Below, in pieces: positions 1 to 4,698 of a stretch of 5,480 bases of DNA. Under the pieces are notes generated by a model. The model made no database searches. It was not told where the DNA came from and saw nothing but the letters and a program-made list of their open reading frames with translations. The stretch comes from a virus (lineage: Duplodnaviria; Heunggongvirae; Uroviricota; Caudoviricetes). The stretch lies in IMG/VR virus record IMGVR_UViG_2671180427_000005. One strand, written 5' to 3'. Both the position numbers and the translations under genes were made by a program. The stretch's first letter is position 1; each line of letters begins with the position of its first letter.

Positions 1-294
1 GCAGCCGGTGGTTTTTCTGCCACCACGATGCTGTTTTCACTGGGGGCCAGCATGATACTGGGTGGTGTGGCTCAGATGCTTGCCCCGAAGGCTAAAGTAC
101 CGGAGTACAAAAGCACGGATAACGGTAAACAGAACACGTACTTTTCCTCGCTGGATAACATGATTGCCCAGGGGAACCCGATGCCGGTGCCTTACGGTGA
201 AATGCTGGTTGGCTCCCGGCGAATCTCTCAGGACATCAGTACCCGTGATGAAGGCGGTGGCGGGAAGGTCGTGGTTATCGGGCGGCAGAGGTAA
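1..294 (+). CDS. I: Tail assembly protein I, C-terminal part (5' end lies upstream of the window)
   Basis: Frame 1 is open from base 1 to TAA at 292-294. The translation (...MLFSLGASMILGGVAQMLAPKAKVPEYKSTDNGKQNTYFSSLDNMIAQGNPMPVPYGEMLVGSRRISQDISTRDEGGGGKVVVIGRQR) closely matches the C-terminus of lambda gpI as I recall it. Its position directly upstream of J fits lambda gene order. Confidence 0.85.
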   Translation, partial: AAGGFSATTMLFSLGASMILGGVAQMLAPKAKVPEYKSTDNGKQNTYFSSLDNMIAQGNPMPVPYGEMLVGSRRISQDISTRDEGGGGKVVVIGRQR

Positions 295-334
295 AAAGAA
301 TAAAAAAATCCCGCAGTGTTGCGGAGCTGCGGGA
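295..334 (-). terminator. Intrinsic (rho-independent) terminator for leftward transcription
   Basis: Inverted repeat CCCGCAG (310-316) / CTGCGGG (327-333), extendable to 8 bp with T309/A334, around a 10-nt loop. On the minus strand the stem is followed by UUUUUUUAUUCUUUUU (complement of 295-308). On the plus strand the stem is followed by GAGTTACG, so it is unidirectional (leftward). Confidence 0.5.
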
Positions 335-393
335 GAGTTACGAAGATTAACTATAGAGAATTATTCTTATGTCACGACAAAAAACATTAACGC
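301..393 (-). ncRNA. Candidate small non-coding RNA (about 90-95 nt) in the I-J spacer; hypothetical
   Basis: Bounded by a candidate minus-strand promoter (400-427, predicted start near 393) and the minus-strand terminator (295-334). No ORF longer than 12 codons with a ribosome-binding site on either strand. Predicted RNA: 5'-GCGUUAAUGUUUUUUGUCGUGACAUAAGAAUAAUUCUCUAUAGUUAAUCUUCGUAACUCUCCCGCAGCUCCGCAACACUGCGGGAUUUUUUUAU-3'. Boundaries are inferred, not measured. Confidence 0.3.
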
Positions 394-399
394 AGAGAA

Positions 400-460
400 A
401 TTATTAGCGCCACAGTCAGTTTGTGAAAATGTGAAGATATTCAGAATTTTTATTCAGTCA
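400..460 (-). promoter_or_regulatory. Candidate sigma70 promoter on the minus strand with upstream A/T-rich tract
   Basis: Read on the minus strand: -35 TTCACA (complement of 422-427, 5/6 to TTGACA), 16-bp spacer, -10 AATAAT (complement of 400-405, 5/6 to TATAAT). An A/T-rich UP-like tract lies upstream (complement of 441-460, TGACTGAATAAAAATTCTGA). No equally good hexamer pair was found on the plus strand in 295-465. Confidence 0.35.
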
Positions 461-464
461 TGAT

Positions 465-496
465 ACAGGCATCCTCCGGGATGCCTGTTGTTTTTG
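465..496 (+). terminator. Intrinsic terminator for rightward transcription, 34 bp upstream of the J start
   Basis: Perfect 9-bp stem CAGGCATCC (466-474) / GGATGCCTG (479-487) with tetraloop TCCG, followed by TTGTTTTTG (488-496). The minus-strand reading has no U-tract after the stem, so it is unidirectional (rightward). Confidence 0.6.
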
Positions 497-529
497 TGCG
501 TAACAGTTATCACAGTAAAGGGTGAGACA

Positions 530-3500
530 ATGGGCAAAGGTGGCGGCAAGGCGCACACGCCGGTAGAGGCAAAGGACAATCTTAAGTCCACGCAGATGAT
601 GAGCGTGATTGATGCCATTGGTGAAGGGCCGATTGAAGGTCCGGTGAAGGGGCTGCAGAGTATCCTGGTGAACAAAACCCCGCTGACGGACACGGACGGC
701 AATCCTGTGATACATGGTGTGACAGCGGTCTGGCGCGCCGGGGAGCAGGAGCAGACACCACCTGAAGGCTTTGAGTCCTCCGGGGCGGAAACCGCACTGG
801 GCGTGGAAGTGACGAAGGTAAAGCCGGTGACGCGCACCATTACGTCCGCGAACATTGACCGCCTGCGGGTCACCTTCGGGGTGCAGTCACTGTTGGAGAC
901 CACCTCAAAGGGCGACCGTAATCCCTCTTCTGTCCGACTGCTGATTCAGTTGCAGCGTAACGGTAACTGGGTGACGGAAAAGGATGTCACCATTAACGGC
1001 AAGACCACCTCACAGTACCTGGCGTCGGTGATTCTGGAGAATCTGCCTGAGCGGCCCTTTAACATCCGGATGGTCCGGGAGACAGCGGACAACACCTCGG
1101 ACCAGCTGCAGAATAAGACGCTCTGGTCGTCATACACCGAAATCATCGATGTGAAACAGTGCTACCCGAACACGGCGATTGTGGGGTTGCAGGTGGATGC
1201 GGAGCAGTTTGGCGGTCAGCAGATGACGGTGAACTACCATATCCGCGGTCGCATCATCCAGGTACCGTCAAACTATGACCCGGAAAAACGCACGTACAGC
1301 GGCATCTGGGACGGCAGCCTGAAACCGGCATACAGCAACAACCCGGCCTGGTGCCTGTGGGACATGCTGACTCACCCGCGCTACGGCATGGGAAAACGTC
1401 TGGGGGCGGCAGACGTGGACAAATGGGCGCTGTATGCCATTGCGCAGTACTGCGACCAGACGGTCCCGGATGGTTTCGGAGGGACAGAGCCGCGGATGAC
1501 CTTTAATGCGTACCTGTCACAACAGCGTAAGGCGTGGGACGTTCTCAGTGATTTCTGCTCGGCGATGCGCTGTATGCCGGTATGGAACGGCCAGACGCTG
1601 ACGTTCGTTCAGGACCGCCCGTCGGATGTGGTGTGGCCGTACACCAACTGCGATGTGGTGGTGGATGATAACGGCGTGGGGTTTCGCTACAGCTTCAGCG
1701 CCCTGAAGGACCGCCACACGGCGGTGGAGGTGAATTACACCGACCCGCAGAACGGCTGGCAGACCTCCACGGAACTGGTGGAAGACCCGGAAGCCATACT
1801 GCGCTACGGGCGCAACCTGCTGAAGATGGATGCGTTCGGTTGCACCAGTCGCGGTCAGGCCCACCGTGCCGGGCTGTGGGTGATAAAGACCGGACTGCTG
1901 GAAACGCAGACGGTGGATTTCACGCTCGGGTCACAGGGGCTGCGTCACACACCCGGTGACATTATTGAAATCTGTGATAACGACTATGCCGGGACCATGA
2001 CCGGCGGACGTATCCTGTCCATCGATGCCGCCAGCCGCACCCTGACACTGGACCGTGAGGTGACCCTGCCGGAGACAGGTGCCGCCACGGTGAACCTGAT
2101 TAACGGCAGCGGTAAGCCGGTGAGCGTGGCCATCACTGCACACCCCGCGCCGGACCGGATACAGGTCAGCACCCTGCCTGATGGTGTGGAGACATACGGT
2201 GTATGGGGGCTCTCCCTGCCGTCACTGCGTCGTCGCCTGTTCCGCTGTGTCTCCATCCGGGAAAACACGGACGGCACCTTTGCCATCACGGCGGTGCAGC
2301 ACGTACCGGAAAAAGAAGCCATCGTGGATAACGGGGCCAGCTTTGAGCCGCAGTCAGGCACCCTGAACAGCGTTATTCCACCGGCAGTGCAGCACCTGAC
2401 GGTGGAGGTGAGCGCGGCTGACGGTCAGTATCTGGCACAGGCGAAATGGGACACGCCGCGGGTGGTGAAGGGTGTGCGCTTCAGTCTGCGCCTGACCAGT
2501 GGAAGCGGTGAAAACAGCCGCCTGGTGACCACCGCCATCACCGCAGACACGGCGCACCGTTTCAGTGGCCTGCCGCTCGGGGAATACACCCTGACAGTCA
2601 GGGCAATTAACAGTTATGGCCAGCAGGGCGAACCGGCCACCACCACCTTCCGGATTAACGCGCCAGCAAAACCCGCCACCATTGAACTGACGCCGGGGTA
2701 TTTTCAGATAACGGCGGTCCCGCGTCTTGCGGTGTATGACCCGACGGTACAGTTTGAGTTCTGGTTTTCGGAGACAAAAATCGCAGACACATCTCAGGTG
2801 GAAACCTCTGCCCGTTATCTGGGGACCGGCAGTCAGTGGAGTGTATCCGGCCCGCACATTAAGCCCGGGAAGGATTTCTGGTTTTACGTGCGCAGCGTCA
2901 ACCTGGTGGGGAAATCTGCGTTTGTGGAAGCCAGTGGCCGGGCCAGCAATGATGCAGAAGGGTATCTGGGGCTGTTTCGGGAAAAAATAGGAAAACTGCA
3001 TCTGGCTCAGGGGCTGTGGGAGCTGATAGACAACAGCCAGCTTGCGGATGAGATGGCGGAGATGAAGACCACCATCACCGAAACCCGCAATGAAATCACA
3101 CAGACGGTCAACAAAACACTGGAGAACCAGAGCGCCACCATACAGCAGATACAGCGCGTGCAGAAGGACACAAATGATGACCTGGCTGCACTTTACATGC
3201 TGAAGGTACAGAAAACAAAAAATGGCATACCCTATGTTGCCGGTATTGGAGCGGGGATTGAGGATACTGATGGCCAGCCACTGAGCAACATACTGCTGCT
3301 GGCTGACTGTATCGCGATGATAAATCCGGAGAGCGGCAACAGCACTCCGTTATTTGTGGCGCAGGGGAATCAGCTGTTCATGAACGACGTGTTCCTGAAA
3401 CGACTGTTTGCGGTGAGCATCACCTCGTCCGGCAATCCCCCAGCATTTTCCCTGACGCCGGAAGGAAAGCTGACGGCAAGGAACGCGGATATCAGCGGAG

Positions 3501-4006
3501 CAATTACCGCGAATACCGGCACGCTCAATAATGTCACCATTAACGAGAACTGTGTCATCAGAGGGAAACTGTCTGCAAACCAGATTGAAGGCGACCTGGT
3601 GAAGACGGTGGGGAAAGCCTTTCCCCGGAATAACAGTTATGCCAGCGGTACGGTAACCGTCACAGTTTACGATGACCATGGCTTCGACCGGCAGATTATC
3701 ATTCCCCCGGTGCTGTTTCGCGGGACGAAACACCAGAATTTCAACAGCCCGAATCAGCAGTCGTACTGGTATTCCACCTGTAAGCTACAGGTGCTGAAGA
3801 ACGGGGTTGAGATTTTCCATGAACCGGCAACGGATGTCAGCCGGGTGTTCTCATCGGTGATAGATATGCCGGCAGGGCGGGGTCATGTCACCCTGACGTT
3901 TAATGTGTCGTCGGCCGGTGCGAACAACTGGACGCCGACAACGTACATCAGTGATTTACTGGTTGTGGTCATGAAAAAATCCACGGCAGGGATCAGTATC
4001 AGCTGA
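530..4006 (+). CDS. J: Host specificity protein J (tail tip / central tail fibre), 1158 aa
   Basis: ATG at 530 preceded by a Shine-Dalgarno-like AAGGGTGAG (518-526); stop TGA 4004-4006. The N-terminus [39 protein letters not shown]... matches lambda gpJ ([22 protein letters not shown]...) as recalled. There is long collinear similarity including fibronectin-III-like repeats (about 2380-2940) and the conserved ...[19 protein letters not shown]... C-terminal block. The track's TTG at 488 is an upstream in-frame artefact that begins inside the terminator hairpin. Confidence 0.95.
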
Positions 4007-4025
4007 CGGTTTATTAACCCGGACG

Positions 4026-4049
4026 GGCACCTCAGGAGGTGCCTTTTTT
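4026..4049 (+). terminator. Intrinsic terminator downstream of J
   Basis: 7-bp stem GGCACCT (4026-4032) / AGGTGCC (4037-4043), loop CAGG, followed by TTTTTT (4044-4049). It starts 20 bp after the J stop. Confidence 0.7.
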
Positions 4050-4074
4050 ATTGACTGAAAACAAAGAGGTAATC

Positions 4075-4698
4075 ATGCGGCATTTATACGCAACGATATT
4101 ATTGTTTACTACCCTGCTGGCAGGAATTGCCTTTCCTGCACAGGCTGAAAGCGGACACGGTGCATTTTCCGTGGGATATGCTCAGGTTCACCCGGGCGGC
4201 GTACCGGCATTGTCCGGTACCGGTGCGCGTGCAGGTGATTTAAAAGGGATTAATGTGAAATACCGTTATGAGTTCACGGATCACCTGGGCGGCATTGTCG
4301 CGCTGAGTTATGCATCGGTGAAGAAAAGTGACACGATGCAGACGGGTGAAAATACCTTCCATTATGAAAGCCTGCGCGGTCGTTATGTCAGTCTGATGGC
4401 CGGCCCTGTCTGGCAGCTCAGTGAGCGGGTCAGTCTCTATGGCATGGCCGGGATGGCGTACACCCGCTGGTCTGACAGTGTTCAGGATTACCGGCGTGAT
4501 GAAGTGAAACCGGGGTATGTGAAGGAGACCACCACCGCCAGTGATGGTCATACTGCGCGTCATCTGTCGCCGGCCTGGAATGCCGGGATTCAGTTCAGTC
4601 CCGTAGAGACGGTGGTTATTGACCTTGCTTATGAAGGTTCCGGCAGTGGCGACTGGCGCACTGACGGGTTCATCGTGGGTGTTGGCTATAAATTCTGA
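4075..4698 (+). CDS. lom: Lom outer-membrane protein (Ail/Lom/PagC/OmpX family 8-stranded beta-barrel), 207 aa; prophage moron
   Basis: ATG at 4075 with Shine-Dalgarno AAGAGG (4064-4069) 5 nt upstream; stop TGA 4696-4698. Predicted signal peptide MRHLYATILLFTTLLAGIAFPAQA with cleavage after AQA. The mature protein is collinear with lambda Lom (conserved GINVKYRYE, FHYESLRGRYVS, AYEGSGSGDWRTDGFIVGVGYKF with C-terminal Phe). The track's GTG at 4039 lies inside the J terminator hairpin and is rejected. Confidence 0.9.
   Translation: MRHLYATILLFTTLLAGIAFPAQAESGHGAFSVGYAQVHPGGVPALSGTGARAGDLKGINVKYRYEFTDHLGGIVALSYASVKKSDTMQTGENTFHYESLRGRYVSLMAGPVWQLSERVSLYGMAGMAYTRWSDSVQDYRRDEVKPGYVKETTTASDGHTARHLSPAWNAGIQFSPVETVVIDLAYEGSGSGDWRTDGFIVGVGYKF

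Follow-up and report, generated by a model that had tools for sequence, protein, structure and literature searches.

The spacer between tail genes I and J of this lambdoid prophage very probably carries, on its minus strand, an expressed member of the PasB/EcOnc22-24 family, which would be an Hfq-dependent small RNA (sRNA) that acts in trans by base pairing. The element lies in a 5,480-nucleotide stretch of viral DNA, referred to here in its entirety as the window, and its features are collected in Table 1. The sequence-only reading had proposed that a leftward promoter, a short noncoding body, and an intrinsic terminator in this spacer make up a prophage sRNA, possibly one bound by Hfq. That proposal is borne out by homologues at the same position, for which experiments have established RNAs of this kind. 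Since the family has already been detected experimentally, the feature itself is no novelty, and the window copy is a diverged allele.

Table 1. Features at the I-J junction of the window, with positions counted from its first nucleotide
Feature	Positions	Strand	Basis or remark
Tail assembly gene I, 3' end	1..294	+	ORF 28..294, stop codon 292-294
Predicted sRNA, PasB/EcOnc22-24 family allele	302..393	-	Covariance model
Intrinsic terminator hairpin	309..334	-	8-bp GC-rich stem 334-327/316-309, 10-nt loop; energy-minimised fold
UUAAUCUUC, candidate seed, single-stranded, just 5' of the terminator	342..350	-	Alignment, consensus fold
AAGAAUAAU, three consecutive A-R-N triplets, candidate Hfq distal-face site	360..368	-	Inside the hypervariable middle
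Conserved 5' leader GCGUUAAUG, then U-run	379..393	-	Alignment
-10 hexamer AATAAT	400..405	-	Motif scan
-35-like hexamer TTCACA	422..427	-	Motif scan; restricted to some allele classes
Palindrome TCTGA-N6-TCACA, candidate activator site	430..445	.	9/10 positions of the CRP core
Terminator-like hairpin (465-488), then TGTTTTTGTG, just upstream of the J ribosome-binding site	465..498	+	Scan, 10 pairs
Tail tip/host specificity gene J	530..4006	+	ATG at 530; Pfam

The I-J spacer occupies window positions 295-529 (235 bp) and is poor in open reading frames. Its GC content of 0.383, compared with 0.56-0.58 in I and J, agrees, as do the coordinates and the ORF list, with the earlier description of a 235-bp, AT-rich gap that holds no credible ORF. 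The homologues of the window I ORF in E2348/69 and Sakai are annotated as tail assembly proteins (tblastn identity of 93-95%). The J product matched 7 Pfam families, 6 of them above the curated cut-off and all 6 of these J or phage-tail domains, and it contains the full set of lambda gpJ Pfam domains. The gap between I and J in lambda, given in the sequence-only reading as ∼60 bp, is indeed short, measuring ∼54 nt when extracted from a locus that is 100% identical to J02459.

For comparison with other prophages, 106 I-J junctions were collected, and a covariance model (R1) was built from PasB, EcOnc22, and other allele classes, with all window-type alleles left out. R1 matched window 302-393 on the minus strand over the full length of the model (68.9 bits, E = 2e-11). 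The same model recovered 83 copies in 100 related loci, all of them antisense to J, and it found no copy in the lambda-type loci searched, in which the spacer is 54 nt long. Single motifs of the kind that make up the unit occur in the window at chance frequency (promoter-like sites, 3 versus 3.2 expected; terminator-like sites, 8 versus 4.6 expected in the scan), so the case rests on comparison with other sequences, and it is the homology detected by R1 that places the unit above chance.

The spacer is widespread. Of 5426 complete E. coli genomes, 1662 gave Megablast matches to it, with at least 80% of the spacer covered in 382; matches were also obtained in 149 phage records, mostly those of Stx-converting phages. 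The window allele itself recurs in many E. coli genomes at 97-99% identity; strain 377323_2f (NZ_CP039404), for instance, carries a spacer that is 99.1% identical. Almost none of these matches carry an annotated feature over the spacer in the RefSeq/GenBank records inspected. Homology to a described RNA had been left open in the sequence-only reading; the homologous I-J units are PasB and EcOnc22/23/24. A cmscan of the whole window against Rfam at an E-value threshold of 1 returned nothing in the spacer, and no Rfam family matches the element. The one weak hit, to Atu_C8 at 3940-4059 (E = 0.18; 24 bits, with a gathering score of 50), corresponds to the J terminator and was treated as a chance match.

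PasB of EPEC O127:H6 E2348/69 is an 83-nt, Northern-validated RNA encoded on the minus strand from 1466343 to 1466261 (Pearl Mizrahi et al. 2021, PMC8550237 Tables S2, S5, and S6). In that genome I ends at 1466255 and J starts at 1466496. The study that reported PasB also found log2FC values of -6.8 and -2.4 for it in Δhfq cells, 37 RIL-seq interactions with core and accessory genes in non-induced cells, and a higher PasB level under the non-activating condition (PMC8550237). The window element has the same I-J slot and orientation as PasB, antisense to the tail genes, and its 3' end likewise lies a few nt past the I stop codon. Both have a terminator made of the arms CCCGCAG and CTGCGGG followed by a U-tail, a leader of GCGUUA plus a U-run that is common across the family, and an A-rich ARN tract. 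Each also has its own promoter at the conserved distance, with the AATAAT of the window in the same alignment column as the consensus TATAAT of PasB. The seed-like blocks are related (UUGAUCUUC in PasB and UUAAUCUUC in the window). At 75% identity, the two differ in the middle 25-30 nt and in the terminator loop.

The PasB Northern probe (AATCCCGCAGTGATCGCGGAGCT; PMC8550237 Table S6) aligns with plus-strand window 307-328 with 1 substitution and 1 deletion, and the PasB and EcOnc22-24 Northern probes both fall on the element that corresponds to window 307-358. Variants of PasB are said to differ by only a few nucleotides (bioRxiv 10.64898/2026.05.13.724894; Zhu, Shabalina & Storz 2026), so the PasB set of that preprint probably does not contain the window allele class. 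A search of the literature found no individually validated PasB target.

EcOnc22/23/24 were reported as Hfq-CRAC peaks in prophages Sp15/Sp14/Sp11 of O157:H7 Sakai (Tree et al. 2014, PMC4104026 Table S2), with a Northern band of ∼85 nt that is destabilised in Δhfq cells (PMC4104026). When placed on NC_002695.2, all three map to I-J spacers and are encoded opposite to the tail genes, as the window element is. The probe shared by EcOnc22-24 maps just 5' of the terminator hairpin in the three copies with 3 differences, which probably have their source in PDF text extraction. EcOnc22-24 share with the window GUUAAUCUUC, the terminator, and the -10 hexamer AATAAT. In contrast, they have another middle, a shorter 5' leader, and an unrelated -35 region (TCCGGC), and their identity to the window allele is 77%; that between PasB and EcOnc22 is 74%. 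The targets of EcOnc22 are listed as unknown in PMC7873438.

The Sakai coordinates in PMC4104026 Table S2 are offset from NC_002695.2 by +137 to +143 at 1.94 Mb, as calibrated with AgvB1. Used directly on NC_002695.2, the 2014 coordinates misplace sRNA peaks, and the EcOnc22 peak lands upstream of the promoter. Once corrected for the offset, the EcOnc22 CRAC peak would span the body of the sRNA together with the 5' terminator arm. Near 2.9 Mb, the EcOnc42 and EcOnc06 probes lacked the precision needed to confirm the offset.

By sequence and position, PasB and EcOnc22-24 belong to one family. A link between the two was found neither in PMC8550237, where the Note column of Table S6 is empty, nor in the preprint, which does not contain "EcOnc". 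The link appears to be unreported and is a small new point.

The minus-strand promoter proposed earlier was recovered at the same coordinates by the motif scan, with a 16-nt spacer between the hexamers and a match at 10 of 12 positions. Nearly every one of 35 distinct spacers retains the -10 position (AATAAT in 13, TATCAT in 9, TATAAT in 7, GATAAT in 2, and AATAAC in 2), whereas the -35 hexamer TTCACA is found in 17 of the 35, the others having TTCTGT or TCCGGC. Several allele classes have a weak -35 or none, so the strength of the promoter may depend on an activator.

The transcript predicted from this promoter would start at 393 and have a length of ∼92 nt, or ∼78 nt if its 5' end is the equivalent of the annotated PasB end (window ∼379). 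Relative to the start that the -10 implies, the annotated PasB 5' end is displaced ∼14 nt downstream, and because the two disagree, the assignment of the primary 5' end to 393 or ∼379 is uncertain. A literature search for transcription-start data at the I-J sRNA locus returned nothing usable.

At the other end of the unit, the fold agrees with the GC-rich hairpin and long U-tract described in the sequence-only reading, and the U7 tail (T7 at 308-302) directly follows the stem. The motif scan reports a terminator-like hairpin followed by ATTTTTTTAT, the stem of which is an inner alternative (325-310). The terminator 3' arm CTGCGGG can pair with either CCCGCAG at 333-327, the family-conserved partner, or TCCGCA at 325-320, the partner in the scan's stem. 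Both the energy-minimised fold of 393-302 and the family-conserved stem correspond to the hairpin first described and not to the inner stem of the scan. Across 40 distinct variants, the 7-bp core of the family terminator is 99.3% paired, and its stem contains 2 covarying pairs (CG to UA and GC to AU) in one lineage; the hairpin is therefore kept in homologues and shows compensatory changes of the sort that had been sought.

The sRNA body is unstructured outside the terminator. RNAalifold found no conserved structure beyond this hairpin, and single-sequence fold z-scores were weak, with the Sakai allele excepted. A long-range GUUAAU/GUUAAU pairing was rejected, since by eye it fails across the alleles in the alignment.

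The blocks along the body differ in how well they are conserved. The most variable segment of the spacer, the one with the highest column entropy, is the 15 nt at 365-379. At least three ARN repeats are present in 35 of the 40 distinct family variants, versus 4.7% of shuffled bodies. The UUAAUCUUC block hardly varies among the aligned sequences and is left single-stranded by the consensus fold, and the seed of PasB is likewise placed just upstream of the terminator (bioRxiv 10.64898/2026.05.13.724894). The window allele keeps the -10, the leader, the ARN tract, UUAAUCUUC, the stem, and U7. At the sequence level it has the features of an Hfq class II-like sRNA, namely an internal (ARN)≥3 tract (AAGAAUAAU, 368-360) and the terminator U7 (308-302).

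The most conserved part of the spacer is 425-500, upstream of the promoter. The palindrome in this region, flanked by an A/T tract at 446-456, is the sole CRP-core match in the window, where 0.23 are expected and at least one occurs in 41 of 200 shuffles. It is kept in 34 of 35 distinct spacers, varies only at the centre of its 6-nt spacer, and is more conserved than the sRNA itself. Its centre (437.5) lies at -44.5 relative to a start at 393 and at approximately -58.5 relative to 379, and the canonical CRP positions are -41.5, -61.5, and -71.5. Because its distance to either 5' end is non-canonical, control of the sRNA promoter by CRP through this candidate site is only a lead. The higher level of PasB under the non-activating condition does not by itself test the CRP idea. 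The presence of a near-invariant CRP-like palindrome upstream of the sRNA appears to be unreported in the literature.

The sequence-only reading mentions neither this palindrome (445-430) nor the hairpin on the plus strand at 465-488. The latter is followed by TGTTTTT and is conserved among relatives, with a compensatory change from T-A to C-G and one T.G intermediate. The motif scan found no plus-strand promoter for it. Lambda has a different, unrelated hairpin and T-run (AAACCGCCTGCGGGCGGTTTTGTC) at the same position before J, and for this reason the plus-strand hairpin looks like an ancestral feature of the junction. The sRNA unit looks like an insert between this hairpin and the I stop codon. 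The plus-strand hairpin may act in termination of non-antiterminated transcription or in mRNA stabilisation.

In the mechanism that we propose, the gene would be a "moron", a complete unit from promoter to terminator inserted between I and J of a lambdoid prophage. Its own sigma-70 promoter (-10 at 405-400) would drive leftward transcription, opposite to that of the late operon, so that lysogens could produce the sRNA even with the tail genes silent. The transcript would end at the intrinsic terminator with its U7 tail, and this U-tail, together with the internal (ARN)3 tract, would load the RNA onto Hfq. A U-tail and an ARN tract fit the proximal and distal faces of Hfq, respectively, in the Hfq sRNA classes. 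The unpaired UUAAUCUUC would base-pair in trans with host and prophage mRNAs, and the allele-specific middle segment perhaps pairs with targets too. ARN motifs are among the Hfq sites reported by Tree et al. (PMC4104026).

A broader reading, which we consider possible but rather doubtful, is that PasB, EcOnc22-24, the window allele, and at least two further allele classes make up one modular sRNA family spread by recombination of tail modules. In such a family, the leader, the seed UUAAUCUUC, the terminator, and the near-invariant upstream region with its CRP-like palindrome would form a constant scaffold, and the ARN-containing hypervariable middle would retarget or re-tune each allele, in analogy to the variable domains of the anti-sRNAs. 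Some phages would amplify the modular unit in tandem or couple it to sodC, and on induction the late I-J mRNA would be a perfect sponge for the sRNA.

It is rather improbable that the sRNA is mainly cis-acting, that is, that it is fully complementary to the I-J intergenic part of the late mRNA, is transcribed convergently with it, and modulates tail-gene expression at induction. Such modulation could involve duplexes cleaved by RNase III, transcriptional interference, or titration by the late mRNA, and a role in trans would be compatible with any of these. In all 83 copies found, the unit sits within the late operon but on the other strand, and read-through of the late genes necessarily yields the exact complement of the sRNA. 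From the arrangement of the genes, a cis-antisense geometry on I-J read-through mRNA during induction would be unavoidable. However, PasB forms chimeras on Hfq with many unlinked RNAs in non-induced cells (the 37 interactions cited above), and lambda and its close relatives express I and J without the element, both of which argue against regulation in cis as the main role.

It is improbable that the unit in this prophage is instead a silent remnant or only a pair of transcription insulators from which no stable sRNA accumulates. In the insulator version, the two hairpins, one on the minus strand and the other on the plus strand (465-488), would stop stray transcription around the I-J junction, a function that is consistent with the presence of only a plus-strand hairpin at the lambda junction. 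The chance frequency of promoter-like and terminator-like motifs in the window also fits a silent unit, as do some relatives in which a PasB-like 3' module lies downstream of sodC with no promoter of its own. Against this reading, the window allele retains every conserved block, the same allele is present in many E. coli genomes at 97-99% identity, and homologues with the same layout are expressed.

A small protein, in place of a noncoding RNA, is a very improbable product of the spacer: the ORFs available for it are one of 24 aa (316-390) and one of 21 aa (460-525), both on the plus strand and the only ones of at least 20 aa wholly inside the spacer, and a 6-codon ATG ORF inside the sRNA, the remaining listed ORFs being run-ins from I or J, but no Shine-Dalgarno sequence was seen by eye before any short ORF. 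Homologous spacers have a hypervariable middle and indels that differ in length by non-multiples of three, so no reading frame is conserved, and the conserved protein that the sequence-only reading had named as evidence against its proposal is absent.

Other prophage sRNAs were compared with the element. AgvB/AsxR were rejected as I-J RNAs, because these anti-sRNAs lie 3' of PR', and their Rfam families (RF02702/RF02703) gave no match to the spacer by cmscan at an E-value threshold of 1. Like PasB and EcOnc22-24, AgvB/AsxR are short and Hfq-bound, and they have several alleles with a conserved 3' part and a variable upstream part (Tree et al. 2014). Unlike these RNAs, AgvB/AsxR are 51-60 nt long and occupy the PR' moron site downstream of Q, whereas the window locus is in the tail operon; they have anti-sRNA activity, which neither PasB nor EcOnc22 is known to share. 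HnrS (EcOnc10/11/12; PMC13502914), a repressor of hha with several prophage copies, is also an Hfq-associated sRNA and encoded in late regions of EHEC and EPEC lambdoid prophages, but it was rejected as the identity of the element since it is set apart by its loci (prophages Sp9/10/12), its EcOnc group, and its size (66 nt).

From these results, we conclude that raw sequence, when read for a promoter, a body, and a terminator, can reveal a real prophage sRNA that experiments support. Linking PasB of EPEC to EcOnc22-24 of EHEC merges two separately named RNAs, and the merged family exposes allele classes that published BLAST-based surveys probably missed and that matter for target mapping of these RNAs in pathogenic E. 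coli. The additions made here are modest and comprise the unified family, its allele architecture, the conserved upstream palindrome, and the I-J junction as a moron hotspot. Their value is in annotation and in hypotheses (the seed, the ARN tract, and the CRP-like site), with no new mechanism.

The view of the I-J junction as a moron hotspot comes from variant loci among the relatives, in which tandem arrays and sodC-linked copies occur. Twelve of the loci compared have I-J spacers of 851 nt. Each of these contains a minus-strand ORF, read from its translation as a Cu/Zn superoxide dismutase (sodC), and this ORF has a terminator-like hairpin of its own; next comes a PasB-like 3' module without the family promoter. 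Such a sodC-linked sequence might be a remnant; alternatively, read-through from sodC may account for its expression. In one viral contig (L085, positions 575-1500), the I-J spacer is 926 nt long and holds four tandem, diverged PasB-like modules antisense to J, with scores of 35.9-99.5 bits. The tandem and sodC-linked copies appear to be unreported in the literature.

Two further observations concern sequences around the junction. The same I-J junction was also present in contigs from many assemblies whose source taxa are unrelated (Streptomyces, Bacillus relatives, Pseudomonas, Bradyrhizobium, and others), and the coverage of these contigs is often low. A single such junction was checked and is 100% identical to phage lambda, and these occurrences look like contamination of the assemblies with lambda DNA. 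Downstream of J, the window has a strong terminator on the plus strand (4025-4044) and next, as in lambda, a gene for an outer-membrane protein of the Ail/Lom family (4075-4698; Pfam E = 1e-50).
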